A stretch of DNA of 64,000 bases. Source: an uncultured Eubacteriales bacterium (GTDB lineage: Bacteria > Acidobacteriota > Aminicenantia > Aminicenantales > Aminicenantaceae). Location: NCBI GenBank assembly GCA_964429695.1, contig CAYSCS010000073.1, positions 12,438 to 76,437 on the forward strand. The letters run 5' to 3'. Position 1 is the stretch's first letter. Every line of letters begins with the position of its first letter. The notes beneath the pieces are model-generated. The model did not search any database. It saw only the letters and a program-made list of their open reading frames with translations, and had not been told where the DNA came from. Of this stretch, positions 2,424 through 64,000 are shown piece by piece. A program made the translations under genes and the position numbers.

Positions 2424-2519
2424 TCCATTTCTCCTTTCAGATTTTTAACGAAAAGATATCTTCTTAAAGGCTGTTACCAATTACGACCTTAATCTACTCA
2501 CGCCTAGGACCCTCTCGAC

Positions 2520-15247: not shown

Positions 15248-16090
15248 CTAATCAAACAGCTGTTCAAGCGCTCTTTTGAGGAAGACAGAGATGAGCTCCC
15301 TTCTGTACTCCTCGCTTCCTCTTATATCTGAAATCGGCTGGATATTTTTTTGAGCGATCTTTTGGGCCTCAGAAATTAGCCTTTTGGTGATGACCTCTCC
15401 TTCGAGGAGTTCCTCAACCATTCTCAGACGCAAAGGACGGGGCGCAGCGGACCCGGCTGAGATTCTTGCCTTATGGCATTTTTTACCCTCGATTTCGAAA
15501 AGACAGGCAAGACTCACCACAGCAAGGTCCATTTTAACCCTCCCTTTCTTGAGAAAGGCCACCCTAAACCTGAGAGGAGGAGGGCCAAGAATGATTTCTG
15601 TGAGTATCTCATTCTGAGAAAGACAGATTTTCCCCTCTCCCTTGAAGAATTCATCCACGGGAACGAGACGGTCCCCTTGAGGGCTACTGAGTCTCAGAGT
15701 TGCCTCAAGAGTGAGGAGCGCAAGAGCAATATCAGCGCTTGGAGAGGCATTGCAGAGATTTCCCCCTACTGTGGCCACATTCCTGATTTGAACGCAGGCC
15801 ATATTCTTTGCGGCTTCCTTGAGGAGAGGATATTTTTCATGGAGAGGCTCGTTCGCAAGCAGAGAGGTTATCGTCACCAGCGAACCTATCCTTGCCCCGT
15901 TTTGAAGGCCTATTTTTTTTAACTCTTGTAACAGGCGCAAGGAAATCAAGGCTGAGGGCCTGACTTCATTGTTTTTTATTTTCACCAGAATATCAGTACC
16001 TCCAGCAATAAAAGAGGAATCAGCTATCTCGTTTTTCAACTTCCATGCCTCTTCTATTGTTTGTGGTCGGAGGTATCTAAAGCGGATCAT
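15248..16090 (-). CDS. FAD-binding medium subunit of molybdenum hydroxylase (CoxM-like)
   Basis: 280 aa; FAD-binding PCMH-type domain (AGGTDIL...); no extra 4Fe-4S insertion. Confidence 0.8.
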
Positions 16091-17406: not shown

Positions 17407-17787
17407 ATTTTGTTTAAATCATAGATTTTGGTTTGAGAGGAATTTTTCTGGCTTGGATGTGGCGGTGGTTTAGCCCTGGCTGAAAATTAGCTCTCGGGCT
17501 TATCGCGAAGGATGCACTCCGCTTTTTTTACAGGCATTTTTACCTCATTTCTTTCTTAATCCTCTTTCCCCATGTTAACAGAGCTTAAAAGGGAGAGGTC
17601 GTGAAGGTAGAAAGTGGAGAGGGAGAAGGACCTTGGCCGCGAGGAGTTAAAAAATATAGGAATCGTGGGGTTAAGCCTTTAAAATGATTTTCTGAGCCCC
17701 TGCTTCACAAAATTCTTTTTAACTTGAAGCGTAAATGAAGTATTATGAAAAAATGTCTCTTTTTCAAGTTTAAATCAAATGATTTCC

Positions 17788-48790: not shown

Positions 48791-49074
48791 CCTACTGCCT
48801 TGAGCTTGGACTCGATAGAGGCTTCTTTGTCCAGGCGGTGGTCAACACGAAGGTCAATATGGATTCTTCGCACACCCATCTCGAGGAGGGCTTCATGTGT
48901 TTTTTCAATCACCCTGAAAAGAGTGGGAAGGTCTGGGGCTTCGATAGTGGTTGACATTCCACCTGTGAAATTTTTTAACCCGGAAGTTTCGATAATCTCG
49001 ATGGCCCTTTTTACATACTTGCTCACTGAGACTCCTTCACTCGTGGGAAAAATAGCAAATTCTGCGATAATCAT
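48784..49074 (-). CDS. MTH1187/YkoF-family (DUF77) small protein
   Basis: 96 aa; ferredoxin-like fold family pattern (IAEFAIFP...GVSVS, GMSTTIE). Confidence 0.65.
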   Translation of the reverse strand: MIIAEFAIFPTSEGVSVSKYVKRAIEIIETSGLKNFTGGMSTTIEAPDLPTLFRVIEKTHEALLEMGVRRIHIDLRVDHRLDKEASIESKLKAVGK

Positions 49075-49352
49075 CTCTTCCTCCTTGATGATAATTTATT
49101 TTTCGCTACTTTAAGTGAACTGTCAAGAACGCGAAATCTTTCCGCTTAAGCCACCTCAAGTTTATGAGCTTCGCCAGAGAGGAATTTTCAAGCCCTTGCT
49201 GAGTGAGGTTTGAGATGAGGAGAAATTTTTCGCTTAATTATTTTTCTCTTTCTGAGCTATCTTTAAACTTAAGAAAGCTGTCTTCCTTGTCTTCCCTGAT
49301 TAAATCTCCTCTGCTAACCATTCTTTGCCTTTGGACATCAGGCTGAATTAAA

Positions 49353-50690
49353 TCACCCCATTTTAATTTTCATCAAAATTATCTTTATCGTATGGAGAAA
49401 GATGAGAATTTGGAGTTTTAAATTGAGTAGAGACATGAATATCTGTTTATAAGACATATTTCCCGTGAATAGATTCCACAGAATTGAGCGCAGTATACCC
49501 CCCTGTTTATTTTTTTTCTGAGCAAGGTCGAGATGGACTTGGGAGAAAAGATTTGAGGAAGAGATAAAGTCATTCAGAAAGAAGATGAAGCGGCCGTAGG
49601 CATTGTCTCGGATCAATCGTTTCTTTGCCCTCTTGTAGTAATGAAATAAAAAACTTTCTCCATCAATGCCGTACAAGAAGGCTGCTTCAGCGGCAAGTTT
49701 GGCAGTAAAAAATGCAGATTCTATGCCGTTTTTGTAGTGACGGGAAAAACTTGCGTCGCCAATGATTACCAGTCTATCGCTAAAAGGTTTTTTTGCAGGA
49801 GTCACAGGAATTTTTGGGTAACAGAGACAACAGGGTCTTAAAGAAGTGAAGGCATCTATTTCTTTGAGATTGAAGAACTCTTTAATCATCTCTGGTGAGG
49901 CGTCTTTCCTCCCCACCAGAGTCACAGTCAGATATTCTCCCTTGGGGATAAGAGTTCCGTATTTCAATATTCTTGATTTTGGCAAATAGACATGAATGGA
50001 AGAGCCGAATTTTTTTTCTATTACCTCAGAGCCAAGTTTGAATTCTGCCTGATAGGTAGTTAGAGTAGAGGGGGGTTGATAACCGAAGCCGAGGCTCTGA
50101 ACCTTTTCCAAGAGGCGGGTGTTCACTCCAAAGGCACCCACGACTAAATCTGCCTCGAATTTTTCGGACTTTTGTTTTTGGCCAAAATATAGAAGAAGGG
50201 GGTCGTGCCTCCTCTGAGGTAGTGTTATCTCCCACACAGGCAAAGCTATGACCTTAGCTCCACAATCTTGGGCGTAGCTGAGAAGGAAATCGTCAAAACT
50301 GATTATCTGCGGAAAATGAGAATAACGAGGCCCGTTTCCCCTGAAGACAGTCGATATCTTATTCTTTTTTTGCTCCTCACAAGAAAGAGAGAGGGAATCT
50401 TCACCTACATGAAGAAAATAACCTTCCAACCTGCTGATGATTCTCCTTTCGGGTAAGAAGATTCCTTCTTCCTTAAGGCTCTGGAGAAGTGTCTCAGATA
50501 AAACTCCTGCGCAGAGGTTGCATCCTCGAGGTCCTCGCTCGAGGAAATCTTTGCCGTCGAAGATTGTAAGCGAGAGGTTTATTCCCTCCCTTTTCGCAAA
50601 CTTCTGGATGAAATGGACGGAGAAAGAACCAGCTGGTCCCCCTCCGATGATTGCAATTCTTGAACCTTCTTTAAGCCTGAATTCTCTCAT
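49353..50690 (-). CDS. FAD-dependent oxidoreductase (geranylgeranyl-reductase/halogenase-like)
   Basis: Rossmann IAIIGGGPAGS near the N-terminus; start moved to the internal Met (MREFRLKEG). Confidence 0.55.
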   Translation of the reverse strand: MREFRLKEGSRIAIIGGGPAGSFSVHFIQKFAKREGINLSLTIFDGKDFLERGPRGCNLCAGVLSETLLQSLKEEGIFLPERRIISRLEGYFLHVGEDSLSLSCEEQKKNKISTVFRGNGPRYSHFPQIISFDDFLLSYAQDCGAKVIALPVWEITLPQRRHDPLLLYFGQKQKSEKFEADLVVGAFGVNTRLLEKVQSLGFGYQPPSTLTTYQAEFKLGSEVIEKKFGSSIHVYLPKSRILKYGTLIPKGEYLTVTLVGRKDASPEMIKEFFNLKEIDAFTSLRPCCLCYPKIPVTPAKKPFSDRLVIIGDASFSRHYKNGIESAFFTAKLAAEAAFLYGIDGESFLFHYYKRAKKRLIRDNAYGRFIFFLNDFISSSNLFSQVHLDLAQKKNKQGGILRSILWNLFTGNMSYKQIFMSLLNLKLQILIFLHTIKIILMKIKMG

Positions 50691-51009
50691 CCTTAGGTTA
50701 TTATATTCAAATATTCTTATTAATTCTATAGAATCTATATAAATAATAATAAACAATTTTTTAAGCTTGAGAAAAAGACAAAGAAAAAGATATTTTAAAT
50801 GCTTGGAGAAGAGTTGAGCAAAGATAAGGAGGAAACTAAATTTAAATTCACTTAGGGGTGTTTAGCCTTATCTTAGGAAGTGATTTTCTCCTTTGTGTCT
50901 ATCTTTTAAAGGAGTTTTTTATTTAAAAAAGCAGTGAAGATTTTGCTTCTAATCTGCCCTTGTTTATACATTTATAATGACTCTACCATAAATTCTCGAA
51001 GAGAAGGGC

Positions 51010-51516
51010 TTACTCTTCGGGTTTGGGATGTTTTATTTTTTCCCATGAAGAGGCAAAATCAAAAGGCTTATCGTGGGCATTTTGATGACAGGTTAAACAA
51101 TGTTTTTCAATCGCAGCCATACTCTCATACAAGATAAGGCCGTTTCTTACAGCTTCTTCTCTATTTTTCATCACATTCAAACTCTTGTAGTTACTTCCGG
51201 GACCGTGGCACACTTCGCATGAAACTCCTTCTTCTTTAAGAAAAGGTTCTTTTTCGTGGAGCGGAGCATGACATTTAAGACAGGCAGGATTTTCTGCAGC
51301 GTTCTCAGCAAGCGCCATTGCTTCTTCAGAGAGGAGGGCTGTATAGGATTTTGCGTGCTTGCTTTCTTCCCAGATAGGATGCTGTTTTCCCTGTTTTTCA
51401 GTCCTGTGGCAGATCTTGCATTTATCCGCCCCCACATACAGGAATTCCTGACTGAGAAGACTCATGGAGCACAAAAAGCCTGTAACAAGGATGACAAGGA
51501 ATGAGACTTTTTTCAT
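51010..51516 (-). CDS. tetrahaem c-type cytochrome, secreted
   Basis: signal peptide; four CXXCH (CKICH, CLKCH, CEVCH, CLTCH). Confidence 0.8.
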   Translation of the reverse strand: MKKVSFLVILVTGFLCSMSLLSQEFLYVGADKCKICHRTEKQGKQHPIWEESKHAKSYTALLSEEAMALAENAAENPACLKCHAPLHEKEPFLKEEGVSCEVCHGPGSNYKSLNVMKNREEAVRNGLILYESMAAIEKHCLTCHQNAHDKPFDFASSWEKIKHPKPEE

Positions 51517-52269
51517 TTTTACTCCTTTTCAAAAAATATTAAGCAATCAATTTACGCCTGTCAACACAAAAATCCTCCTCTTATTTTTCGTTTAAATTAA
51601 TATCCATTTCTTTCTTATTTGTAGCCGAAGAGCAAGCTCCAGAGGATGAGAGGAATCAAAGAAATTCCAAGAAGAAGGAAGAAAGAGCCAAAAATTTTAA
51701 ACGCAAGTAACTTTTTTAAATCCACCTCTTTCAAGATAACCTCTTTCTTTAATTTTTCCCTTCCTTTGAGGTAATGATACTCTGCAGATCCTCCTCTTAA
51801 TATTCAGCAAAAGGCTCTAGCCTCGTGAGAATGACCGGGTCCATGAGGAAGTATTTCTCAAAGCAAAAGGGTCTCCCTCAAATCCAACTCAGGCTCTCAG
51901 GTATTTTCTTTAGATTAAGCTAGGAGAGGTTTCTAAGACTTTGGTTTTTATCTAGGAGCTTTTTCGAAGGAGATATCCAATTAAAATAAAAATGAAGCCA
52001 TATTATAGTTTATACATTGTCTAAATTAGTTTATCGCTAGATTAGTTGATAAAAATTTTTGAGCCTCGCACCAGTAATTGAAAGTAAAAAGTTATATGCA
52101 TTTCTTTTCTTTTTTCTCTATGGGTCTTTACCAACCAGTTTGGAGAAGAGCCATAAGTTTTATAAAATTAAAATTTTTTTTAAGGATGGAATTCTCTTTC
52201 AAAATGAGGCAGGAATATTGAAAATTGATATAGTAGTTGATATTTCTCCATTAAAAAAACTGAGATTCT

Positions 52270-53535
52270 TTAGCGCTCTATCTTTTTCTCGATTTTTTTT
52301 ATCTTTAAAAAAATTGCAGTTGCTAGAAGGAAGATGAAAATGGTGGCAATAATCAAGCCTCTTTTCCTGAATTTCGCCTCATTGAGCGCTTTTTCTCCTT
52401 TCTCCTGAACGCTGGAAAGAATCTCTTCTCCTTCATTTATTTTTTTTTCGAAGTCATCGACGTTGAGGCTATGGGTGAGGTTCCTGACCATTACCAGAAG
52501 ATTCTGAGCCTCTCTCAAATCAAACTTCGACTCACTCACCTCAACACCTTTTCTTTCCGCCGTTTCAAGAATTTCTTCCATTTTTTTTATTTTATTTTTG
52601 AAAGATTCGATTCTATTTCTATAGAGGGAAGAGACTTCAAAGCCTTTTGATCCTTGTTCATGGCAATTCAAACAAACGGATTCTTCTCCTGTGCCGAGCA
52701 TTTCATCTCGGGGAGGAAGTATTCTGTGGTTTTCATGGCAAGCCTCGCATTCTGAAATTCCCATTTCTCCAAAAGCCTCTTTATGCGGACTTTGAGAAAA
52801 TAGTTCACTTGCAGAAGGGTGACATTGATGGCAGACAAAGGCAATCGCTGAGACTCCAGGTGGCATTGCCCCATGATTTCCATGACAGTCGTTGCAGACA
52901 GCGGCGGAAAGGTCCTTTTTTTCGAAAAGAGCCCTGGCATGCACACTCTCTCGATAGTCTTTCTCCTGAGTAATGGGAATTGAATATTCCCTCATGTATT
53001 CTTTATCAGAATGACAACGGCCGCACATAGACGGCAAATTCCAGGGGAAAACAAGAGATTTGGGGTGAGAAGCCTCCAGGATGCCGTGAGAACCGTGACA
53101 ATCAATACAGACAGCTACCTTTATGTCTCCCTTTTTTAGCAACTTTCCATGTTGACTTGTCCAGTAGAGCCCAAGCTGGTCGATTCTGAGGCTGGGGTTA
53201 TATTTTCTGATGTAATCAGAATCCTGATGACAGTCCCCGCAGAAAGCAGGAATTTGTTTTCTCCCTGGGGTTCCTTTGAAGGATGAATCCTTCGCACTTT
53301 CAAGGTCATCTTCCTTTTCATTTCCACCGTGACAGGACACACAGGTGAGGCCGAACTTCTGGTGAATGTCGTTTTTAAAAGCCTCGACAGGGGCACGAAG
53401 CCCGTCTTCAAGCTCTCTATGGCATTCAAGGCAACTGTTCTGAGCCTCAGCTTCTGTTACCTGAAGAAGAAAAAGGGAGAGAATCATCAATCCCAAAAAA
53501 ATAAAATAAAATTTATTGAACTTCATTTCCTTCAT
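52270..53535 (-). CDS. nonahaem c-type cytochrome with N-terminal signal and C-terminal transmembrane anchor
   Basis: nine CXXCH motifs; C-terminal hydrophobic helix GLIIATIFIFLLATAIF; start at 53535 (MKEMKF) overlaps the cytochrome b stop. Confidence 0.8.
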   Translation of the reverse strand: MKEMKFNKFYFIFLGLMILSLFLLQVTEAEAQNSCLECHRELEDGLRAPVEAFKNDIHQKFGLTCVSCHGGNEKEDDLESAKDSSFKGTPGRKQIPAFCGDCHQDSDYIRKYNPSLRIDQLGLYWTSQHGKLLKKGDIKVAVCIDCHGSHGILEASHPKSLVFPWNLPSMCGRCHSDKEYMREYSIPITQEKDYRESVHARALFEKKDLSAAVCNDCHGNHGAMPPGVSAIAFVCHQCHPSASELFSQSPHKEAFGEMGISECEACHENHRILPPRDEMLGTGEESVCLNCHEQGSKGFEVSSLYRNRIESFKNKIKKMEEILETAERKGVEVSESKFDLREAQNLLVMVRNLTHSLNVDDFEKKINEGEEILSSVQEKGEKALNEAKFRKRGLIIATIFIFLLATAIFLKIKKIEKKIER

Positions 53536-54617
53536 AGCCTTGGATGAAGATAGGTGTAGAGAGTGATGAGAATTATGTAGAGGAGGATTATCAGCCCTGC
53601 AATCGAGAAAAAGGGACTTTTTTTCTCCCTTGATGCCCTCCTGTCTAAATAGGGAACGAGCATCCAGAGAAGAGCGCCGAAGATGAATCCCACAATGGCG
53701 AGGACCTCTCCTTTGATGGTAAAAACGTGAGAAGGGATTAATTTTAAAGTTGTAAACATGAAGATAAAATACCACTCAGGTTTTATTCCCAGGGGAGTGG
53801 GAGAAAACATGTCCGCCTTTTTTCCTATTTCCCAGGGAAAAAAGACGCATAAAATCCCTATCAAAGAAAGAATGAGTATCCAACCGAGAGAGTCCTTGAG
53901 GATGAAATTGGGGAAAAATGGCACTTCTTTTATTTGCTTTTCTTTAAGCCCTATGGGTTTACTCATTCCCAGGATTTGAACCAGGAGGATATGGAGCCCG
54001 AGAACAAAGACTGTGATTAAAGGGAGGACGATTACATGAAACCAGAAGAACCTCTGCAGCGTGAACTCTGAGACATCCGGGCCCCCGAGGATGAAATTCT
54101 TGAGCTGCTTCCCGATGAGGGGAATTGTGCCTGCAATGTCAGTTCCCACTCTTGTGGCGAAAAAGGAGAGTTCATTCCAAGGCAGGAGATAACCACTGAA
54201 GCCAAAGGCGAGGAAAATAAGAAGGAGTAAAAATCCGCTTACCCAGGTTAGTTCTCGAGGATTGCGGTAAGCCTTGAGAAAAAAGGTACTGAACATGTGG
54301 ATGAAGATGGTGCCGATGAGGATGTTGGCTGTCCAGGAGTGAAAAGAGCGGATGAGCCAGCCAAACCTTACTTCACCCATAATGAATTTAACGCTTTCAT
54401 AGGCGCCGTCGACAGTGGGTTTATAATAAAGGGCTAACATGATTCCTGTCACGACTTGGATGAAGAAAAGAAAAAGACAGATTCCTCCGAAATAATACCA
54501 GAAGGAGAATTTGTGTTCGGGGACCTTTTTCTTTTTGGCCATTTCGATGAGGGAGGAGAGCCTTAATCTTTGGTCAAGGTGAGAGTAGATTACTCTACCT
54601 ATCTTTTTCATTCTCAT
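53532..54617 (-). CDS. full-length cytochrome b (b6 + subunit-IV-like) of a Rieske/cytb quinol oxidoreductase
   Basis: 361 aa, 7-8 TM helices, N-terminal alignment to cytochrome b6 (FGGICLFLFFIQVVTG...), conserved His pairs in helices. Confidence 0.85.
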   Translation of the reverse strand: MRMKKIGRVIYSHLDQRLRLSSLIEMAKKKKVPEHKFSFWYYFGGICLFLFFIQVVTGIMLALYYKPTVDGAYESVKFIMGEVRFGWLIRSFHSWTANILIGTIFIHMFSTFFLKAYRNPRELTWVSGFLLLLIFLAFGFSGYLLPWNELSFFATRVGTDIAGTIPLIGKQLKNFILGGPDVSEFTLQRFFWFHVIVLPLITVFVLGLHILLVQILGMSKPIGLKEKQIKEVPFFPNFILKDSLGWILILSLIGILCVFFPWEIGKKADMFSPTPLGIKPEWYFIFMFTTLKLIPSHVFTIKGEVLAIVGFIFGALLWMLVPYLDRRASREKKSPFFSIAGLIILLYIILITLYTYLHPRL

Positions 54618-55036
54618 GTCCTGGAAACTATGATCTCTTCACCTGAAATCTCTACCTTGTAAGACCTGAGGGGTGAGGGTGGGGGACCTGAGATCACTCT
54701 TCCGCTCAGGTCGAATTTTCCATTATGGCAGGGGCAGAGGATTATTCCTTCTTCACTTTGATAGATAACTGAACAACTAAGATGAGTACATACAGCCGAA
54801 AAAGCAAGAAGTTCACCTTCTTGAGTCTTGATTAAGATGGCAGGTTCTTCGCCGAACTTGAAAATCTTGTGGGTGTTGGGTGGAATTTCTCGAGCCTTTC
54901 CGACAACGACTTTTTTGGCTGTCACCTTGGCTTTCTTAGGAGGAATAAGGTAACGGATAAGGGGATACAGAAAAGAAGCTATCGTTCCCGTCAGGCTCAA
55001 AAAAAGAAAAATATCAATGAAACTTCTTCTTTTCAT
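54614..55036 (-). CDS. Rieske [2Fe-2S] protein
   Basis: CTHLSC...CPCHNGKF boxes; N-terminal KRRSFID Tat-like anchor. Confidence 0.85.
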   Translation of the reverse strand: MKRRSFIDIFLFLSLTGTIASFLYPLIRYLIPPKKAKVTAKKVVVGKAREIPPNTHKIFKFGEEPAILIKTQEGELLAFSAVCTHLSCSVIYQSEEGIILCPCHNGKFDLSGRVISGPPPSPLRSYKVEISGEEIIVSRT

Positions 55037-57023
55037 CTCTACTTTTCTGGATTGATTCTAACTTTTTTTTCAACGCTGTCAAGCTTTCTTCAGTGAAATT
55101 AAAGTTATGTACCCCGAGGCTTCCATCAAGTTCGAATTTTTCGATCAATTTGTGGGCCTCATTGAGTTTAAGGTTTATATATTCTCCCCCCAGCCCCTTT
55201 TCTTTCTTTTCTTTTAATAAAAAGCGACAGGAGTTTAGAAGGGTCCGGGTTGTGGATTGCCATTCATCAAAGATTTCCTTGTATCTATCTTCATGACACT
55301 CTCCACACTTATTCCGGTCAGAGCGATAAACGAGATTGTTTCTTTCCAGGTGGCAGTCGGAGCATCCTACCCCGGCGCTTGCCATCCTATCCTCTGGAAT
55401 TATAAATTCATCTTCCTTGCCTCCTTGATAAAAAGTCTTCTGGAGGAGGTGGCACTCTTCGCACCTTCTTGAGTTTTTCTCATGGTGGCAGGGAGCACAG
55501 CTCTTTTTTGTGGTCACGAGCTCCCCATGTCTTCTGAGATTTAAGTGACAGGAATCGCAGCCAATTTTACTTCCCAGAACATGCGTCTTATGGGAGAAAG
55601 TTAAGCCAAATATGGAGGAGCTGATTTCTTCGATTCCTTCATGACAGGTTATACACTGAGAGGGTATCTCCCCTCCCAAAACCTCGAAGGAAGGAGGAGT
55701 AAAGGGAGATTCGATGAGACGCAGAGCATCCACCATCATTTTATAAGCTGCAGAGAGTAGCTCCAGGGAATAACTCATGTTGTGAACACTCTTCCCCTTT
55801 TCAACGAGTTCGATGTTGAAGAGAGCATCTTCGAGAAGAGATTCAGCATTTTTCTTCTGCGGATGTTTAGTCATTTTTAATTCCTGAAGAATATTGAGGT
55901 ATAGGGAACGAATTTCTCCTATTTTCTTATTCGTGGAAAGCTCCCACTCCTTCAATATCCTTGAGAATCCCTTTCCGTGACATGAGGAGCATGCTTCACT
56001 CCCTGAAACGAGAGTTTCACTCTTGATTTTCTTTCTCCCTTCTTCTTCGTGGAGAAAGTGGCAACCCTTGCAGCTTAACCCCTTTTCGAGCATGAGGTTT
56101 GGTTTTGGATGAGGGATCCCTTTTCCTCCTTCTCCAGTAAAGAGAATTTTCTGGGCAAGATGATGGCCAGCATGGCAAGAGGTGCATTCGGCAATGGCTT
56201 CAATATTTTTCACAATCTTGTGCTGGATTTCTAAGTGGCATTGATTGCACTCGACCTTGTGAAGATAGATATGGGTTTCGTGCATCAAATCTGTATCATC
56301 GTATCTTTTTAACCTCTCTTCTTCCCAGTGACATTTGTAGCAATTTTCTCTGGGTACCTCACCTTCTCCTAGGATGGTATTAGTATGGCATTTCTCACAG
56401 GAAATTCCGTTTTCGATGACCAGAGCATGCTTAAAAGAAGAACTCCCCTCTTCACTAAGAGACTCTCTTTGGTGACAGTGCAGACAATTATCGATTTGAG
56501 GATAGTGTTCACTTCTCTTGAAATGACAGATGAAGCATGAGCTTTCGGTGACGGTGATGTGTTCGCCCTGGACTATCTGAGAATGACAGCTTGTGCACTG
56601 TAGCCTCTTTCCTCTCTTGAGGTCAGAGAAATGGACTCTATGGTCAAAGATAATTTTCTTGAATCTTACCTTCCCCTCTAGAAGCCTCTTCTCATGACAG
56701 CCTTGGCGAAGACAACTTTCGTCTCTTATTTCCGCCCATGGCTTTGATTTGAGGTAGAGCTTTGTCCAGTAGCGTCCCACCATCACCAGCCCTTCCACCT
56801 TCTTCCTGAGTTTGCTCTTCACCCCACCTCCTGGAGGGTAGTGACAGAGGCTGCATTCGAATTTGTTATGGGAGGAAGTTTTCCAGCTTTCAAAGAAAGG
56901 TTTCATGTAATGACACATAGCACAGAAACGAGAGTGGGAGGTGAATTCGATTGAGCCGAAAAGAAAAAGGATGAAAATAGAGGCGATAACGACGGCTACA
57001 ATTAAGCCTTTCTTTCTTTTCAT
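55014..57023 (-). CDS. membrane-anchored multihaem (17 CXXCH + 1 CX4CH) c-type cytochrome with NapC/NrfH-like N-terminus
   Basis: N-terminal TM helix followed immediately by CAMCH; 17 canonical haem-binding motifs across 669 aa. Confidence 0.8.
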   Translation of the reverse strand: MKRKKGLIVAVVIASIFILFLFGSIEFTSHSRFCAMCHYMKPFFESWKTSSHNKFECSLCHYPPGGGVKSKLRKKVEGLVMVGRYWTKLYLKSKPWAEIRDESCLRQGCHEKRLLEGKVRFKKIIFDHRVHFSDLKRGKRLQCTSCHSQIVQGEHITVTESSCFICHFKRSEHYPQIDNCLHCHQRESLSEEGSSSFKHALVIENGISCEKCHTNTILGEGEVPRENCYKCHWEEERLKRYDDTDLMHETHIYLHKVECNQCHLEIQHKIVKNIEAIAECTSCHAGHHLAQKILFTGEGGKGIPHPKPNLMLEKGLSCKGCHFLHEEEGRKKIKSETLVSGSEACSSCHGKGFSRILKEWELSTNKKIGEIRSLYLNILQELKMTKHPQKKNAESLLEDALFNIELVEKGKSVHNMSYSLELLSAAYKMMVDALRLIESPFTPPSFEVLGGEIPSQCITCHEGIEEISSSIFGLTFSHKTHVLGSKIGCDSCHLNLRRHGELVTTKKSCAPCHHEKNSRRCEECHLLQKTFYQGGKEDEFIIPEDRMASAGVGCSDCHLERNNLVYRSDRNKCGECHEDRYKEIFDEWQSTTRTLLNSCRFLLKEKKEKGLGGEYINLKLNEAHKLIEKFELDGSLGVHNFNFTEESLTALKKKLESIQKSRDEKKKFH

Positions 57024-57086
57024 CTTAGAATCAACACGGGCCGTTTTGGCGATTCAAGAAGAGAGGTTTCAAGCTCATCCTTTTTA

Positions 57087-57905
57087 TCAGGCATAGGAAT
57101 GGAGACCGGAGATTAAGTAATTCACACCGAAGTAAGTAAACATGGCTGTGAGAAATCCAATGATGGCAATCCATGCTGAACGTCTTCCTCTCCATCCCAT
57201 GAGGAGCCGGGTATGGAGATAAAGGGCGAAGACAAACCAAGTGATCAGGCTCCAGGTCTCCTTTGGATCCCAGCTCCAGTAGCTTCCCCAGGCTTTGTGA
57301 GCCCAGACCATGCCGAAGACAAGTGCTCCCAGAGTAAACAGGGGGAAACCTACGGCAATACACCTGTAACTTATCCAATCCAGCTTCAGGGAAGAGAGAG
57401 AAGATTTAAGTTTCTTTCCTTTTTTCTCTCTTCTCTCTGTGGTTAAATACATGATGCTCGTGATGAAAGCCAAAGCGAAGAAAGCCTCTCCCAGCAGAGT
57501 CACCGAGACATGGAGCCACAACCAGTAACTCTGGAGTGCTGGAACAAGAGGAGTGTGATCTTTGGGCATGAGAGGAGAGGAGGCAAGAGCCATTACTGCC
57601 ATGACGATGAGCAGGAAATAGGGACCAACGTTACGAAATTTGTATTTTTTTTCCATGATGAGATAAGCCAGGATGGAAGACCAGGCTAGAAAGGAGAGTG
57701 ATTCATACATGTTGGTAAAGGGAGCATGACCACTCTCAATGGTGCGCAGGATGAGAGCTAGGGTATGAAGAATGAGACCACCTGCGGCGAAAAAATAGGC
57801 AATTTTTCCCACGGTTTCTCTTTTAGAAAAGAGAAAAGAAAAATAAAAAAAACAAGAGAGGATGTAGGCTAAAAAGGTCACTGAAAATAGAATCGATTCA
57901 TTCAA
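57087..57905 (-). CDS. ccsA: cytochrome c biogenesis (system II) protein CcsA/ResC
   Basis: polytopic; W-rich WGSYWSWDPKETW motif. Confidence 0.8.
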   Translation of the reverse strand: MNESILFSVTFLAYILSCFFYFSFLFSKRETVGKIAYFFAAGGLILHTLALILRTIESGHAPFTNMYESLSFLAWSSILAYLIMEKKYKFRNVGPYFLLIVMAVMALASSPLMPKDHTPLVPALQSYWLWLHVSVTLLGEAFFALAFITSIMYLTTERREKKGKKLKSSLSSLKLDWISYRCIAVGFPLFTLGALVFGMVWAHKAWGSYWSWDPKETWSLITWFVFALYLHTRLLMGWRGRRSAWIAIIGFLTAMFTYFGVNYLISGLHSYA

Positions 57906-59260
57906 CTCCGCCTCCTTAAAGAATCGAATATTTTGTTGAGTTCAGCCTCAAGCGCTTCTTTATTCTTTGAGCTCAAGGCGCCGACTGCAATTTCTGTTGA
58001 TTTTTCTTCTTGCTCGAGGATTGCCTTTATTTCCCTTATAGGCCAGTAGAAGGCAAGCATCAGTCCCATCATCAAAAAGGCACATCCCGTCCAGATGAGA
58101 GGGGTGCCGGGGTCGCGAGCTACCTGAATGACCGAAAATTGCCTTGCCCGTATCTCGGTGATTTCAATTTTTAAATCATCTTTATTCTTCTGGTGAAGAG
58201 AGGCGAAATCTGGAAACCTTGAGAAAACCCATCCTGAGAAAATTCTTTGACCATCTTTCCATCCTTCTATGAAAGCCGCTGGATTATTCGGTTGGAGAGA
58301 GCGCGTCCTTATTTGCTTGTTTTCGTCAATCATGAAATCAGGGACAAAGCGAGTGACTTTAATTTCTATCTCTCCTCCCCAAAGCCTTACTCTTTCACCA
58401 ACCTCCAATGAAATTCTTTCAGGTCCCTCAGTTGATTTATTGTTTGAGATTAGAAGTTCAAGAGAGGGGCTCTCCCAATCCAAGCCATAACTTGATTGAT
58501 AGAAAAGCAAGCCTTTGTAAGATAAGGGATGATTGACTTCAATCACTTTATTAAGTTGGGGCGCTCCTTTTTCTAATACCGTGAGAGTACTCTTCCAGTC
58601 TTTTACGCTTCCGTTAGCATAGAATTCAGTCTCGAATTTTTCCAACCTGATTTTGAAATCAGCTCTAGGAACAGGAATTACTTCTTGTTCGTAGAGGATG
58701 AGGTTTTCACGAAAACCACCCAGACCGCTCAGAATTCCTCCAGCGAGGATGATAAGCAGACCCAAATGCACAATGTCCGAACCGAAGGCACCCAGCAACC
58801 TTTTTCTACCTATAATAAATATTTTCCCTTCACCTTCCCTTTCTCTTACTCGATAGTGTCTGAGTCGGAGCTCCCCTCTCAATTCTTCTTTTGCCTTAAG
58901 CACGCTCCAGTTTTTTCTAATTTTTTTTGAAATTTTTAGAAGCTGGAGATTTTTTTGTTCTGTTTCAAATTGGGGGTTAAGAATCCTTCTTAATTTCGGC
59001 ATGAGGCGAATCAGGGTACAGGTGATGATGTTTAGGGAGAAGATGAAGAGAAGCCCTATGAACCAGAAGGAGTGATAGAGATTTGTAATTTTAAGCCGGA
59101 TTAGAAGCTGAGCAAGAGAGCCATAACGAGCAAAATATTCGGCAGGGGGTCTCTGCTGAGGAACAAGAGTTCCAAATACCGAGGAGATTGTGATGAGGGA
59201 GATGATTACAAGAGCAAGCTTGATGCTCTTAAAAAAATTTAATAATCTTTGCATCAGCAA
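57902..59260 (-). CDS. ccsB: cytochrome c biogenesis (system II) protein ResB/CcsB
   Basis: 452 aa; ResB-like N-terminal TM segments and large periplasmic domain; ATGA overlap with ccsA. Confidence 0.75.
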   Translation of the reverse strand: MLMQRLLNFFKSIKLALVIISLITISSVFGTLVPQQRPPAEYFARYGSLAQLLIRLKITNLYHSFWFIGLLFIFSLNIITCTLIRLMPKLRRILNPQFETEQKNLQLLKISKKIRKNWSVLKAKEELRGELRLRHYRVREREGEGKIFIIGRKRLLGAFGSDIVHLGLLIILAGGILSGLGGFRENLILYEQEVIPVPRADFKIRLEKFETEFYANGSVKDWKSTLTVLEKGAPQLNKVIEVNHPLSYKGLLFYQSSYGLDWESPSLELLISNNKSTEGPERISLEVGERVRLWGGEIEIKVTRFVPDFMIDENKQIRTRSLQPNNPAAFIEGWKDGQRIFSGWVFSRFPDFASLHQKNKDDLKIEITEIRARQFSVIQVARDPGTPLIWTGCAFLMMGLMLAFYWPIREIKAILEQEEKSTEIAVGALSSKNKEALEAELNKIFDSLRRRS

Positions 59261-59519
59261 ACTTCACCTCAATTTTTATTAATTTTATAGAATTAATAGA
59301 TTTATTTCAATCTTAAATGTCTCTATTTTAGATAAAATTTAAACTCAAAGAAATGGCTCCTCCTTCCTGTCCTACCTTCTTCTTCCCAAGAACTTCCAAA
59401 GAAGCGAAGGATGAGATTATTCTCTTTTATTTCTTCTTTTGCTCTTGAGTCTCTCTTTAAAAACAAGTTTTAGGGAGGCGAATTTTCGCAACTTAAGATA
59501 CGGGAAGGTTGAATCGGGC

Positions 59520-60755
59520 TCATTTCCTGGAGCTTCTGAGCTCCTCGGCCCTTTCCTTTATCTCGGTGAGACTTCGCCTCATCTCACTCCACCCGTACCA
59601 GAGGGCATAATCAGGATTAGCGTGGAATGTACCCTGGAAAGTCCTCATCCTGTGCTCGAGAAACATGACAAAAAGCTTCTGCTCTATGGCAGTTGGGGCA
59701 TCGTGGAAAGTAAGTAAATCAGGGAAGGGAGAGGAATATGATTCTGGTTTGACGAGTATTCCATCTTTGTAGAGTGAAGCAACAATCCTAATTGCCTCTG
59801 CCATCAGCCTGTCTGCTTCGCGGATTATCTGGTCTCCTTTTTCGAGTTCGGCCTTGGCAAAATTGCGGGAGTGACACTGGTTGCAGGTGGTAAGCATCTT
59901 TTCTCTTTCTTTCTCCCATTCATCTTGAGTAAGGCGGGCTACCCTTGCTTGTTTTACAACATCTAATCTTGGGGTTGGATTCCCTTTCGGGTCGAGTACA
60001 CCCAGGGCCTGGAGGATTGTTACTCTATCCGCTGCCCACTGTTTGTCATCCGGCAGGGGAAGGCGGACTGCCAGGAATCCCCATGAAGTAAGAACATTGT
60101 GGTCTCCCTTAACCATGTGACAGGTCTGACAGGTTGGAGCAGCCACAGTCTCAGGCAAGGTTCTGTTTTGCTTCAAGAGAAACCTGACCCCATGCTTTGA
60201 ACCTGAATACATCTCCCATTGAGGATGATCAAACCCCATGTGGCAGGTCTGGCAGGCCTGAGGCTGACGGGCTTCTTGCACAGAAAAGACATGGCGGGTG
60301 TGACAGGCATCGCAGGAAGCAACGCCAAATCCTGGACCATGTTTCTTCAAGTGCTTAATCTCTTCTTCGGATTTCAAACCTATTTTGTGGCATCCACCGC
60401 ACCCCTTCATTCCTTCCATGAGCGCCATGGGCTGCCAGTGCGCAGTGGGCATGGCTTTCATTGCTGCCCATGCGGCTGCGTGCTTTCCTGACTTGAATTG
60501 TTCCACCCTTTCTGGATGACAATTGGCACAAGTCTCGGGTTGGGGAATCTGAGCCCTTTCCACATCCTGCGAACCCTTATGCATATCGCCATGGCAAATG
60601 GAGCAAGTTACTTCATTCTGGCTATGTTTACTGAGCTGCCAATCATTGACGATGTTGGGAGTCGACTTTTTATGACAATCCACACATTCTTGGGAAAATA
60701 GAAGAACTGAAAAACCAAGACTCAAGAAAAAGGAAAAGAAAACCTTCCCTTTCAA
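59520..60755 (-). CDS. octahaem c-type cytochrome, secreted (HAO-like or OmaB-like)
   Basis: signal peptide; eight CXXCH; C-terminal helical region (NPDYALWYGW). Confidence 0.8.
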   Translation of the reverse strand: MKGKVFFSFFLSLGFSVLLFSQECVDCHKKSTPNIVNDWQLSKHSQNEVTCSICHGDMHKGSQDVERAQIPQPETCANCHPERVEQFKSGKHAAAWAAMKAMPTAHWQPMALMEGMKGCGGCHKIGLKSEEEIKHLKKHGPGFGVASCDACHTRHVFSVQEARQPQACQTCHMGFDHPQWEMYSGSKHGVRFLLKQNRTLPETVAAPTCQTCHMVKGDHNVLTSWGFLAVRLPLPDDKQWAADRVTILQALGVLDPKGNPTPRLDVVKQARVARLTQDEWEKEREKMLTTCNQCHSRNFAKAELEKGDQIIREADRLMAEAIRIVASLYKDGILVKPESYSSPFPDLLTFHDAPTAIEQKLFVMFLEHRMRTFQGTFHANPDYALWYGWSEMRRSLTEIKERAEELRSSRK

Positions 60756-61109
60756 TTAAACCTCCCTTTTTTACAAAATTTAGGTTTTATTTTAATTTTC
60801 ATGAAAATTTTCCTCGAAAGACCCTTTCTCTTCTTTATCTTATCGACCTATATATAAGCAATCAGGTTCGAATTTTCAACATATTTTTAAGCTCTCAAGG
60901 CTCATCTCTAAGCAAAAAAAATTAACTGAAGATTAAAAACTTCAAAATGCCGAGGAGTGATAGAAAAGGGGTTCGATATAAGGAGAGGAATGAAAGATAG
61001 ACTTTTTTGTGCTTTTCTTTCCATAACCCTCAAAATTAAAAGAAGATATCTTTTTCTTTTCCTTTTTCCTTTATATTTTCTTACCAACTGATTTCTACTT
61101 TTTCTTCCC

Positions 61110-63266
61110 CTAACGCCATTCGAATCTCTGCCTCTTGCCCCCGAGATGTTCGATGGAATCCACCAGGAGCTGGGCAATGTAACGTGAATTGTGGATGTAT
61201 CCACCTGGCTCTTTTTTACTGAGCTGGAAGTTGTATGCGGCTTTGAGGAGAGCAGGGTCAAAGGAATTGTAACCATTGGGATAGATGTTTTCTCCTGGGT
61301 CTACTTTCCCGTTTGCGTTGAGGTCATAGAAGAAATAGGGATAAGTGTGTCCATCATACACTAGCGCTGCTTTGAGTACCTCGAGAGCATATTTTCGGAT
61401 CTCAGCATAGAGGAGCTTTTCCAGTCCCTTCAACTCTTCTCTTATGGATTCAGAGATGTCGCCGTCTCCATCATAGTCTGGAATGGTGGCAGGACGGATG
61501 CCTCTGAAATGAAATTTTCTCGGGTCAGTCCCTTTTTGTGGCTGGGAAATATCATTTCCATGGCAGAAGACACAGTCTGCTGGGTCAGGACTCTGAACAT
61601 TGTGGAGGTGTCCTGTGATATCATAGGGCGCATTTTCGCTTTTTGTTCCCATGTGGCATTCGACGCAAGTTTGGAATTTCCCTTGGTGGCTGAGGAAAGG
61701 TGTGCGGGTAGCGTAATTTCTATTTGGGAATTCGAAGCCTGCCTTGACTTCACTTCCGAAAAGCACGGCTGCTGCAGGGTAGTAATGGATGTTGATGAAT
61801 GAGTAAGGACCAGGAGAAGAGGAGATGGTTTCCTTGACAGTGAATTTTGAGGCTCGGCCCTGATGACAGTTTAGGCACAGATTGCTTGAATCTCCCATAT
61901 CCTTGCTTATCCCCGAGGGAAATCTTACTGCCCCTGCTTTTCTCATCCCAGGAGGAGTGGTATGACATGTTATACAGAGGAGACCATTTGAAGGTTCTTC
62001 GCTTACAGTTTTTCCCTGCTCAAGGAAAGAGGAAAGGCCTTGGGAACTATGACATTTGGAACATGAAGCTGGGACTTTCCCTTCTTCGTCCCAGTGCCTC
62101 CATGCTTCGGCTGAGCCATTGAAATGTCCCTCATCTTCCCTGTAGATACCGGCCAAGAGATGAGAATCTTCGAGTTTTCGATTGAGGTCTTCGAGGGAAT
62201 CGAAGAGGAGCTCGATGATGTATTTTCCACCGTGTGCATAGGAGTTGGGGTCTTTCTGAGCTACCTGGTAATTGTAGGCAGCCTTGAGAAGACGCGGGGT
62301 AAAGGTAATATATCTATTGGCAAAATTAATCTCATTCTCATCCGCTTGGCCATTATCGTTTAAGTCATTGAAGAAATAAGGATAAGTATGTGAGTCATAG
62401 ACTATGGGGTTTAAGACTATTTCGCGCGCATATTTTTTTATCCCTAGGTAGAGTCTTTCCTTTAAATCTTCGATCTCATAATAGATGCCTTCAACCATGT
62501 CCCCATCGCCATCATAATCAACGAATGAGCCATAAAAACGGATGTCTTTGGGGTCCTTTATTCCCGTGTGGCAAGTGTTGCAGGAGTTAATGTCAATCTT
62601 GAGGGAGTGAGGATTGTGGCATGTGGTGCAAGCGTTGTAGCCAGTTAAGTGAGAGAATCTAGAGTCATAGGATTTTCCCGAATATTCGTAGCCCCCTCTT
62701 ACGAAAGTTCCAAATTGGGTGACAGCAGCGGCATAATAATGGATGTTGATGAAACCGAGGGCTTGGCTGACAACATCCTCTTCCACCGAAGCTCTTGCGA
62801 TTGCTTCATTCACAGAATTCGTGGATGCCCTTCCCTGGTGACATTCTATACATAAGGCTTCTGGACCGAGATTTTCAACAGTTTTTCCAGAAGGGAAAGT
62901 CACTGCGCTACGTTCATGAGTTAAGCCTGATTTATAATCTGAATGGCAGGCTTCACATTCTATGGTTGTTCCTGTTTTAGCGCTTGAGTCAACCTTTTCA
63001 GGAGTAGAGCCATCTACACCGAGAAAGTCCCTAAAACCAGGAGTTGAATGACATTTGGCGCAGGTGGGGGGTATCTCACCTTCTTCATTCCAGTGAGTGA
63101 ATGCCTCTGCAGATGAGTCTGCATGCCCTGAGGTTTCCCACAGTTTTCTGGCGTGTGATTCTTTTGACTGGATGGAAGACTCTTCATCTGGTTTTGCCTT
63201 CAGGGCAAGAAGGACAAGGCAGAATAAAGCCCCCAGCGTGGCCACTATTCTAAGGTATTTCCCCAT
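61110..63266 (-). CDS. decahaem c-type cytochrome built from two tandem pentahaem modules
   Basis: signal peptide; 10 CXXCH; two about 305-aa repeats each ending in DYDGDGD and LLKAAYN(Y/F)Q blocks. Confidence 0.8.
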   Translation of the reverse strand: MGKYLRIVATLGALFCLVLLALKAKPDEESSIQSKESHARKLWETSGHADSSAEAFTHWNEEGEIPPTCAKCHSTPGFRDFLGVDGSTPEKVDSSAKTGTTIECEACHSDYKSGLTHERSAVTFPSGKTVENLGPEALCIECHQGRASTNSVNEAIARASVEEDVVSQALGFINIHYYAAAVTQFGTFVRGGYEYSGKSYDSRFSHLTGYNACTTCHNPHSLKIDINSCNTCHTGIKDPKDIRFYGSFVDYDGDGDMVEGIYYEIEDLKERLYLGIKKYAREIVLNPIVYDSHTYPYFFNDLNDNGQADENEINFANRYITFTPRLLKAAYNYQVAQKDPNSYAHGGKYIIELLFDSLEDLNRKLEDSHLLAGIYREDEGHFNGSAEAWRHWDEEGKVPASCSKCHSSQGLSSFLEQGKTVSEEPSNGLLCITCHTTPPGMRKAGAVRFPSGISKDMGDSSNLCLNCHQGRASKFTVKETISSSPGPYSFINIHYYPAAAVLFGSEVKAGFEFPNRNYATRTPFLSHQGKFQTCVECHMGTKSENAPYDITGHLHNVQSPDPADCVFCHGNDISQPQKGTDPRKFHFRGIRPATIPDYDGDGDISESIREELKGLEKLLYAEIRKYALEVLKAALVYDGHTYPYFFYDLNANGKVDPGENIYPNGYNSFDPALLKAAYNFQLSKKEPGGYIHNSRYIAQLLVDSIEHLGGKRQRFEWR
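61154..63089 (-). repeat. intragenic tandem duplication (about 915 bp x 2) inside the decahaem cytochrome gene
   Basis: DNA-level similarity between 61310-61360 and 62350-62400 and parallel protein motifs; units approximately 61154-62069 and 62174-63089. Confidence 0.6.
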
Positions 63267-63281
63267 TTCACCCTCCTTCGT

Positions 63282-64000
63282 CTATTCCCATCTGTAAGAG
63301 AAAGAAATCTCCAATATGTTCGCTCCGTAATCATTAAACCCAGAGAGCCTCTCTTTAAATTTGAGATAACGATAACCGGCCGAAGCAGAAATACCATTGG
63401 GAAAGAGATATTCAAGATATGCTTTAATCAAATTCCTGGAAATTTCCCAGAAACCCAGATTCCAGTAGAGATTTCCCGAGGCACCGATTTTCAAGCGCTC
63501 TGTTAGATTCAACAGAAGTGAGGAATCAAGAAGGTTCGATCTTCCTTCATAAAGAATTTCCCAGAGAAATGTGCCTCCTGGTCCGCTAAACGAAGGAGGA
63601 TAGGCAATGTTTCGCTTCCCTTCATGTCTCTGATCAATCAAGGAATATCCGCCCGAAACCAAAATTGCTTTGCTCCTGTATGAAGCCTGAAGGCTGAGCT
63701 GATTCCTTCGCGACTGCCAGAGATTTAAAAAGACCTCACTCTCTGAGCCTTTCCAGAGATAGGAACCTAAGAGGTTTATTTTTTCGAAACGAGTCCTGAA
63801 GCTCACTCTGAAACGAGAGAAGCTTGTGGGAGAAATTAGGGTAAAGGGCTCGTCCAGGAATCCATTTTCATAATCGAGATTTATTACGAGGCGAGAAATT
63901 GGTTCGATTCTAAAGTTGCCAAAAATTCCCTTCTTCGTGCTTCTTTCTTCATAGGTTATTGTTTCAAATGGAGAAGTAACTCTTTGAGAAGAAGCTAAGC
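63282..64000 (-). CDS. outer-membrane beta-barrel (porin-like) protein, 5'-partial (continues beyond window end)
   Basis: frame is open from 64000 down to the stop at 63282; amphipathic beta-strand pattern (GANILEISFSYRW, ASAGYRYLKF, GASGNLYWNLGFWEIS); 15 bp upstream of the decahaem gene. Confidence 0.5.
   Translation of the reverse strand, partial: LASSQRVTSPFETITYEERSTKKGIFGNFRIEPISRLVINLDYENGFLDEPFTLISPTSFSRFRVSFRTRFEKINLLGSYLWKGSESEVFLNLWQSRRNQLSLQASYRSKAILVSGGYSLIDQRHEGKRNIAYPPSFSGPGGTFLWEILYEGRSNLLDSSLLLNLTERLKIGASGNLYWNLGFWEISRNLIKAYLEYLFPNGISASAGYRYLKFKERLSGFNDYGANILEISFSYRWE

Follow-up and report, generated by a model that had tools for sequence, protein, structure and literature searches.

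The extHIJKLMNOPQS gene cluster of Geobacter sulfurreducens encodes a porin-like protein together with the Rieske protein ExtO, the cytochrome b ExtP and cytochromes with 12, 10 and 4 haems (PMC5877670). Homologues of MtrAB and MtoAB have been reported in Acidobacteria (PMC10654088), and a study of peat Acidobacteriota describes Mtr-like clusters (bioRxiv 10.64898/2026.05.27.727921). Marker-gene surveys place the Aminicenantia among putative iron reducers (PMC12740246), and surveys based on FeGenie name them as putative iron reducers or oxidisers. Here we describe a multihaem cytochrome gene cluster on a 64,000-nt stretch of contig CAYSCS010000073.1 (the window, meaning the whole stretch that was analysed), which comes from a bacterium of the Aminicenantaceae. 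The cluster was read at positions 51010-64000 on the minus strand, and we consider it probable that it encodes an electron route from quinol to the cell exterior, in which an MtrAB-type outer-membrane conduit is paired with a Rieske/cytochrome b complex. The Aminicenantes (OP8), of which we know no cultured representative, occur in abundance in anoxic sediments, in aquifers and in subseafloor crust, and most accounts treat them as fermenters. A literature search found this cluster undescribed in Aminicenantes, for which it returned marker-gene surveys only.

The outermost gene of the cluster encodes a beta-barrel, and because its open reading frame (ORF) is still open at the window end, the upstream part of the cluster lies beyond the window. 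A look-up of exact proteins located the same DNA on three public contigs, one of which is 100% identical to the window across 11.7 kb, and the upstream region is identical to a 159-kb contig. On the identical public contig (L001) the full barrel gene occupies 8078-9985 and encodes 635 amino acids (aa). The public contigs also encode a 306-aa protein with ten CXXCH haem motifs 10 bp 5′ of the barrel gene and an Rrf2-family regulator further upstream, both of which map beyond window position 64000. The 306-aa protein matched the DmsE-family model TIGR03508 over model positions 3-257 of 258 (E 6e-52) and the solved MtrA chain 6R2Q_A (E 1.9e-26), and it is called MtrA-like below.

The barrel had zero NCBIfam matches, and NCBI names its homologues in Aminicenantales genomes "MtrB/PioB family". 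Its fold was assessed on an AlphaFold2 model of the homologue P0001, which is 52% identical to the barrel of the window organism. The model (predicted local distance difference test, pLDDT, of 85) contains about 26-27 strands, and the top match in a fold search was MtrB (6R2Q_B, E 8e-17, template-modelling score 0.65, ~11% identity), with 22-strand TonB-dependent transporters as runners-up that were weaker by seven orders of magnitude (E 8e-10). This ranking refutes the possibility, raised in the first-pass annotation of the window, that the barrel is an unrelated outer-membrane protein. A conservation scan was performed with one genome per species, returning 80 loci that were compared by ORF-level BLAST, and linkage was counted over loci with enough flanking DNA. 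The MtrA-like gene lay directly 5′ of the barrel gene in 74/74 loci, which bears out the expected linkage of the barrel to a cytochrome. From the sequence matches and the modelled fold, we conclude that the predicted outer-membrane module is an MtrAB-type conduit. The first-pass annotation had taken the 15 bp between the barrel gene and the following 718-aa decahaem gene as the hallmark of such a conduit; the spacing and the MtrB-type barrel stand, but the partner was misassigned, since an MtrA-type cytochrome is encoded upstream of the barrel outside the window. Because the barrel fold best matches MtrB and the MtrA-like gene invariably precedes the barrel gene, the porin-resident cytochrome is most likely the MtrA-like protein and not the 718-aa decahaem.

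The 718-aa decahaem cytochrome is built from two halves that are 38% identical to each other (E 1e-76). Its AlphaFold2 model (pLDDT 83.5, predicted template-modelling score 0.78) is helical and without the beta-barrel domains of MtrC, and the top Foldseek match was OcwA, with the Carboxydothermus S-layer cytochrome having the same fold. OcwA and the S-layer protein are cell-surface cytochromes of Gram-positive metal reducers. The model indicates that an NrfA-fold pentahaem module has been duplicated in tandem to give the 718-aa protein, and a search against the sequences of solved structures gave no usable match, with all E values > 0.4. The family is large, with 4,712 detectable relatives, and its ten CXXCH motifs are constant; the NrfA-type CXXCK active-site motif is absent from the 718-aa protein, in which all motifs are CXXCH. 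A DYDGDGD stretch occurs in both halves, as does a canonical EF-hand-like loop, D-x-N-x-N-G-x-x-D-x-x-E, at residues 301 and 648. An identity as an MtrC/OmcA-type cytochrome was rejected on three grounds: there is no lipobox (no conserved lipobox cysteine in 58 homologues), there are no beta-barrel domains, and no MtrC-family model matched. The protein may be analogous to MtrC in role without belonging to its family, and it is a candidate outer (or periplasmic) partner of the MtrAB conduit. Family members P0127, P0128 and P0227 run to about 1,030-1,080 aa, a length that would fit a third NrfA-fold module (15 haems) and thus a modularly extendable family.

The inner-membrane side of the cluster is centred on a Rieske [2Fe-2S] protein and a cytochrome b. 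The Rieske protein matched PF00355 at 64.5 bits, with PetC-type NCBIfam matches under cut-off; both cluster boxes are present (CTHLSC at residue 83 and CPCH at 101), and the N-terminus carries a KRRSF twin-arginine translocation (Tat)-type motif followed by a hydrophobic segment that would act as a membrane anchor. The cytochrome b matched PF00033 (175 bits), PF13631 and PF00032, the cytochrome b6 model NF002990 (E 1e-64) and the ExtP model NF040969 (E 9e-62), and it contains H-x13-H at residue 93, H-x14-H at 194 and PEWY at 280. Since it has seven hydrophobic segments, we read it as a fusion of b6 with subunit IV. With its cluster boxes, four haem-ligand histidines, PEWY and Tat motif all in place, the Rieske/cytochrome b complex is predicted to be intact. 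A haem ci or b6f-type identity of the cytochrome b was rejected: a Tyr stands at the haem ci Cys position, where the protein reads WYYFGG and the corresponding b6 motif is FYCLGG.

The Rieske gene is translationally coupled to that of a 17-haem cytochrome through a 23-nt overlap. This protein has one N-terminal transmembrane helix and an NrfH-type head with CXXCHxM, at ~4 times the length of NrfH, and it matched PF03264 (31.4 bits, cut-off 24.1), TIGR03153 (E 8e-12, under cut-off) and the solved NrfH chain 2J7A_C (E 2.4e-5). All 18 of its haem motifs, 17 CXXCH plus one CX4CH, were kept in 21/21 homologues, as was CXXCH[YF]M at the first motif. Its 876 homologues carry no annotation beyond "cytochrome c3 family", and a Joint Genome Institute (JGI) record calls the protein at 630 aa, dropping the membrane anchor and the first haem motif. 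The cluster contains no monohaem cytochrome c1 or f homologue, whose place is held by the N-anchored 17-haem protein and a C-anchored nonahaem cytochrome. The nonahaem, which we consider the likely stand-in for cytochrome c1/f, combines a signal peptide with a coiled region, and its transmembrane-like segments span residues 9-27 and 394-412. Its gene is called at 421 aa on L001, and the start is most likely at 53535 and not at 53775. A tetrahaem cytochrome (PF13435, 48 bits) with a signal peptide is a candidate soluble periplasmic carrier; its gene lies 3′ of the nonahaem gene in the related loci L084 (the complete genome CP070825), L048 and L060.

An adjacent pair of genes encodes ResB (PF05140, 254 bits; zero NCBIfam matches) and CcsA (TIGR03144, 277 bits against a cut-off of 188), which are together predicted to form a System II cytochrome c maturation unit. 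An N-terminal hydrophobic signal or anchor was found in every cytochrome, in agreement with the export expected of them, and the nonahaem has in addition a C-terminal transmembrane helix. All cytochromes of the cluster are thus predicted to be exported.

The remaining cytochrome is an octahaem of the hydroxylamine oxidoreductase (HAO) family, with a PF13447 score of 105 bits against a cut-off of 21.9. Among solved structures the best match was the Kuenenia HAO-like reductase 6H5L (E 1.5e-32 with the single sequence, 1.4e-36 with a profile), and other solved matches were 4N4J, 1FGJ, 6HIF and 4QO5, which comprise oxidative HAOs, hydrazine dehydrogenase and the Ignicoccus octahaem. Aligned by profile, the octahaem has Leu385 in the column of the cross-linking Tyr467 of NeHAO, with an indel there and the invariant Tyr383 and Tyr387 two residues off on each side, so a lack of the tyrosine cross-link is likely but not certain. 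The octahaem is probably a reductive-type HAO of the periplasm. No other protein of the cluster is as well conserved as the octahaem, for which identity across genomes is 73-82% as against 41-54% for the barrel. A signal peptide followed immediately by the first CXXCH is present in all octahaem homologues, and because the homologues keep both, the TTG start at 60755 is supported. Public gene calls shorten the octahaem to 387 or 354 aa, dropping the signal peptide and the first haem motif. Faulty gene calls, which affect the octahaem, the 17-haem and the MtrA-like genes, would cause marker-gene surveys to undercount such proteins. The three large cytochrome families of the cluster are annotated publicly as "cytochrome c3 family" or "hypothetical" only.

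The features of the cluster are collected in Table 1. The ten minus-strand genes agree in number and position with those listed in the first-pass annotation, and so does the tally of CXXCH motifs, which sums to 48 over the tetrahaem (4), nonahaem (9), 17-haem (17), octahaem (8) and decahaem (10) proteins. The family calls made there (Rieske, cytochrome b, ResB, CcsA, NapC/NrfH head, octahaem and tetrahaem) were all confirmed by Pfam or NCBIfam.

Table 1. Genes of the cytochrome cluster within the window, in order of transcription
Feature	Coordinates	Strand	Remarks
MtrB/PioB-type outer-membrane beta-barrel (predicted), C-terminal 239 codons of 635 aa	63282..64000	-	ORF open to window end
718-aa decahaem cytochrome c	61110..63266	-	10 CXXCH
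HAO-family octahaem cytochrome c, 411 aa	59520..60755	-	8 CXXCH, PF13447
ResB/CcsB, System II	57902..59260	-	PF05140
CcsA, System II haem-handling subunit	57087..57905	-	TIGR03144, PF01578
Membrane-anchored 17-haem cytochrome c, 669 aa	55014..57023	-	17 CXXCH + one CX4CH, PF03264
Rieske [2Fe-2S] subunit, 140 aa	54614..55036	-	PF00355
Cytochrome b, 361 aa	53532..54617	-	PF00033, PF13631, PF00032
Nonahaem cytochrome c, 421 aa	52270..53535	-	9 CXXCH
c554-like tetrahaem cytochrome c, 168 aa	51010..51516	-	4 CXXCH, PF13435

The genes had also been described as tightly spaced, which holds in part. Besides the 17-haem/Rieske pair, the Rieske/cytochrome b, cytochrome b/nonahaem and ResB/CcsA pairs overlap by 4 nt each, and the CcsA gene is separated from the 17-haem gene by 63 bp; the description does not extend to the gaps of 354 bp between decahaem and octahaem, 259 bp between octahaem and ResB, and 753 bp between nonahaem and tetrahaem. 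Promoter- and terminator-like sites were not commoner than in shuffled sequence, and transcription units are not definable by them; this includes a promoter-like site at 51564-51536, 5′ of the tetrahaem gene, which was not above chance. A scan of 49000-64000 against Rfam gave sub-threshold chance matches only. The 753-bp spacer (51517-52269) is geneless and AT-rich (32% GC), and related loci have a far smaller gap here, of about 285 bp in L084. A 39-aa hydrophobic ORF within it (51615-51734, minus strand) was tried as a small bc subunit and rejected, as other loci conserve neither this ORF nor the DNA of the spacer.

The loci of the conservation scan came mostly from Aminicenantes metagenome-assembled genomes (MAGs), with a few from other Acidobacteriota, from Thermoanaerobaculia and from bins labelled Calditrichaceae and Gemmatimonadota. 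The 718-aa decahaem was found 3′ of the barrel in 52/64 loci and was absent where barrel identity was 35% or lower; an Rrf2 gene was found upstream in 35/63 and the octahaem in 20/46. Counts for the bc module were made over 27 fully flanked loci, of which 16 carried ResB and CcsA and 12 the 17-haem protein. The order ResB-CcsA-17haem-Rieske-cytochrome b, with or without the nonahaem, lies next to mtrAB, downstream of it and on its strand, in ten loci (L009, L024, L025, L032, L041, L044, L057, L067, L070 and L071), and the bc module lies divergently upstream of mtrAB in four others (L045, L059, L060 and L062). Rieske and cytochrome b genes also adjoin mtrAB in two Acidobacteriota outside the Aminicenantes (L073 and L075).

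These results point to the following route, in which the order of steps is proposed. Menaquinol would be oxidised at the Qo site of the Rieske/cytochrome b complex, and the NrfH-type head of the 17-haem subunit may be a second site of its oxidation. Electrons would then pass from the Rieske cluster to the membrane-anchored multihaem subunits, which would replace cytochrome c1/f, and would cross the periplasm by way of the tetrahaem and perhaps of the octahaem or the 718-aa decahaem. Having entered the MtrA-like decahaem inside the MtrB-like barrel, they would leave it for an acceptor outside the cell, for example Fe(III), Mn(IV), humics or a partner cell; the outer partner would most likely be the 718-aa decahaem. 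ResB and CcsA would provide haem attachment for this load of cytochromes.

Several observations weigh against such a route. The MtrA-like protein scores below the TIGR03508 cut-off (176.7 against 192.2 bits), and the barrel falls below that of PF11854 (MtrB_PioB; 21.2 against 23 bits), which several of its homologues exceed. The barrel has no N-terminal CXXC motif, which is a mark of the MtrB of metal-reducing Gammaproteobacteria. The 718-aa decahaem has no lipobox, and its NrfA-type fold also occurs in periplasmic enzymes, so that its surface location is putative. To judge by the gaps of 354, 259 and 753 bp, the cluster may be split into several transcription units. Rieske and cytochrome b genes were found within 10 kb of mtrAB in only 10/27 fully flanked loci, and in CP070825 an intact ResB-CcsA-17haem-Rieske-cytochrome b-nonahaem-tetrahaem series lies ~30 kb from mtrAB. 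A Rieske/cytochrome b complex also needs an acceptor well above the menaquinol potential, a requirement that is marginal for many Fe(III) minerals, and the host organism is uncultured. The expectation that Rieske/cytochrome b and multihaem genes would be conserved together holds to the extent that they recur beside the barrel in many genomes, on the same strand and divergently, but the modules can part. We conclude that there are two separable modules, one made up of the Rrf2 regulator, the MtrA-like protein, the barrel, the 718-aa decahaem and often the octahaem, the other (the bc module) of ResB, CcsA, the 17-haem protein, the Rieske protein, cytochrome b, the nonahaem and the tetrahaem. The two are repeatedly brought together, and because of this we argue for a functional link that is not an obligate one. 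The central proposal of the first-pass annotation, that the Rieske/cytochrome b and porin-cytochrome modules make up a quinol-to-outer-membrane route, is thus supported in the identities, folds, conserved motifs and linkage of its components, and its assembly, the place of the 718-aa decahaem, the substrate and the direction of electron flow are what we infer.

Conduits of the MtrA/MtoA/PioA type are reversible and their roles are inseparable by sequence (PMC7005843), so the route could run inward as in MtoAB and PioAB, with extracellular Fe(II), a mineral, a cathode or a partner cell donating electrons that either reduce menaquinone through a Rieske/cytochrome b complex reversed by the proton-motive force or end on the HAO-like reductase. 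Aminicenantes MAGs have been flagged for iron-oxidation markers in surveys, Lake Towuti MAG work puts Aminicenantia mainly in iron reduction, and the lack of an N-terminal CXXC is a trait of MtoB and PioB too. Uphill flow through Rieske/cytochrome b is generally known from iron oxidation by Acidithiobacillus, and an HAO-type reductase could serve as the periplasmic sink, but fewer than half of the loci have the octahaem. The large extra decahaem directly after the barrel resembles the arrangement in reducers, and the neighbouring genes are heterotrophic, with no carbon-fixation genes within the window. We therefore regard an inward route as fairly unlikely; sequence does not fix direction, and we estimate outward flow to be roughly three times as probable as an inward, MtoAB-like role. 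Chance juxtaposition of unrelated genes in a cytochrome-rich genome, with no common pathway, would account for the long intergenic gaps and for the genomes in which the modules lie apart, yet the same families are linked across dozens of species-level genomes, in two relative orientations and in other Acidobacteriota classes too, which makes it very improbable indeed.

It is also conceivable that the cluster serves periplasmic reduction of nitrogen oxides (nitrite, nitric oxide (NO) or hydroxylamine), with Rieske/cytochrome b feeding the octahaem, and perhaps the NrfA-fold decahaem, and with MtrAB as an accessory or an unrelated neighbour. Feeding of HAO-like subunits by Rieske/cytochrome b has been proposed for the anammox bc complexes, nitrogen oxides are high-potential acceptors that would generally suit such a complex, and the Rrf2 family of the upstream regulator includes NsrR. 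The octahaem itself argues for this reading by its reductive nearest solved relative, by the residue other than Tyr aligned with the cross-link tyrosine and by its high conservation relative to the barrel. The 718-aa decahaem has the fold of a nitrite reductase but not the CXXCK active-site motif, and a 26-strand barrel with a decahaem would be pointless for soluble periplasmic substrates. Since the octahaem is optional and the mtrA-mtrB pair invariant, nitrogen-oxide reduction as the purpose of the cluster is weakened, and five loci (L005, L010, L019, L043 and L048) retain mtrAB and the bc module with no octahaem at all; the octahaem gene is, moreover, set off by gaps on both sides. We judge this explanation quite improbable. 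A further reading would make the cluster a single trans-envelope machine, with MtrAB coupled directly to a proton-motive Q-cycle of the Rieske/cytochrome b complex, with that complex joined to an NrfH-type quinol site on the 17-haem subunit, and with a catalytically competent NrfA-fold tandem decahaem outside. This reading strikes us as rather unlikely. If true, it would equip Aminicenantes with a form of extracellular respiration that conserves energy and differs from the CymA, ImcH and CbcL routes, and with the HAO-like reductase it could couple the oxidation of extracellular Fe(II) or minerals to the reduction of nitrite or NO.

The region upstream of the conduit genes was seen on the public contigs. 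The Rrf2 protein contains a five-cysteine cluster, CC-x3-C-x7-C-x5-C, which suggests an Fe-S-based sensor of iron, NO or redox state that would control the conduit. An AT-rich intergenic region of ~820 bp (L001 6324-7146) separates its gene from the MtrA-like gene, and in many related loci two tandem Rrf2 genes occupy the corresponding position. The MtrA-like gene (L002 7147-8067) is uncalled in the JGI record. A Transposase_20 (IS110-family) fragment lies ~6 kb 5′ of the MtrA-like gene (L001 663-1016); within the window there was no sign of a mobile element, and its composition is even, at about 40-49% GC. In L084, the bc module is followed at 15645-17680 by genes for a 409-aa multihaem cytochrome and a Ni_hydr_CYTB-type dihaem cytochrome b, neither of which occurs in the window, and this pair could be a second quinone-interacting unit on the bc module.

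The rest of the window encodes carAB, mnmA, peptidases, beta-oxidation enzymes, a 2-oxoacid:ferredoxin oxidoreductase, a xanthine-dehydrogenase-family enzyme and an MttB-family methyltransferase, and these heterotrophic and housekeeping neighbours fit with a role of the cluster as an electron sink. The MttB-family (trimethylamine methyltransferase-like) gene adjoins a major facilitator superfamily (MFS) transporter gene at 969-3743, and the two may together serve to demethylate methylamine or betaine. An FAD-like ORF of 467 aa that carries a GGGPAGS dinucleotide-binding motif, located just 3′ of the tetrahaem gene (49353-50756, minus strand), was excluded from the cluster: it had no Pfam match at E 1e-5 and its linkage is loose and inconsistent. 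In CP070825 a 29% identical relative follows the bc module at a distance of ~5 kb, and L019 has a 60% identical one elsewhere. Likewise, no Pfam match at E 1e-5 was obtained for a 519-aa ORF at 32585-34144 on the plus strand.

The subunit combination could not be matched to a described complex in the first-pass annotation, and we likewise found no description in the literature of an architecture that joins MtrAB, an NrfA-fold tandem decahaem and an NrfH-headed 17-haem Rieske/cytochrome b complex with a dedicated System II. The cluster, which occurs in over 80 species-level genomes, offers a concrete and testable molecular basis for the marker-gene claims that Aminicenantes use iron or other acceptors outside the cell for respiration. 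Conduits of the MtrAB type are already known outside Proteobacteria, and the interest here lies mainly in the abundance of the phylum and in what extracellular respiration driven by Rieske/cytochrome b would mean for energy conservation.

The closest described analogue of the inner-membrane module is the Geobacter ext cluster (ExtMNOPQS, Cbc6-type), and the Cbc-type comparison drawn in the first-pass annotation is sustained by the ExtP match of the cytochrome b and by the combination of a porin with Rieske/cytochrome b in ext. The nonahaem matches ExtM and ExtN weakly, and all Ext equivalog cut-offs were missed, with ExtP at 208.5 bits against 290 and ExtM, ExtN and ExtO at 19-22 bits. Unlike Geobacter, where the porin is of the ExtI type and ExtP and ExtQ are separate, the present cluster has an MtrB-type porin and a cytochrome b fused with subunit IV. 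Haem counts and gene order differ as well; there is neither a rhodanese nor a selenoprotein cytochrome, and the NrfH-headed 17-haem subunit, ResB/CcsA and HAO-like octahaem are additions relative to ext.

The bc complexes of anammox Kuenenia and kustc0457/0458 (6H5L) likewise place a Rieske/cytochrome b core near multihaem cytochromes and an HAO-family octahaem, and the earlier anammox comparison holds for the octahaem, which by a by-eye estimate is ~25-35% identical to 6H5L over aligned stretches. The present octahaem differs in lacking a ~55-residue N-terminal extension, in being separated from the bc genes by ResB/CcsA and in being optional, and we know of no anammox complex that has an outer-membrane conduit as a part. 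Replacement of the missing cytochrome c1/f by multihaem subunits matches the multihaem variants of both Geobacter and anammox bacteria. The 718-aa decahaem differs from Thermincola OcwA, the Carboxydothermus S-layer undecahaem (6I5B, 6QVM) and NrfA in being a tandem protein with 10 haems and no CXXCK, in having no detectable sequence similarity to them, and in occurring in a diderm beside MtrAB.

As in Shewanella MtrCAB (6R2Q), MtoAB and PioAB, a ~300-aa MtrA/DmsE decahaem gene directly precedes the gene of a ~26-strand, ~630-aa barrel, and a further decahaem is encoded alongside, as MtrC is in Shewanella. The order here is A-B-decahaem and not C-A-B, the third protein is of a tandem NrfA/OcwA type and not MtrC-like, and at the inner membrane the conduit is partnered by a Rieske/cytochrome b complex that includes an NrfH-headed 17-haem subunit, where Shewanella has the tetrahaem CymA. 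This comparison suggests that MtrAB conduits can be paired with a protein other than MtrC, one of the NrfA/OcwA fold, and with a Rieske/cytochrome b quinol oxidase instead of CymA, and both combinations bear on the energy yield of extracellular respiration and on the modular assembly of such pathways in evolution.

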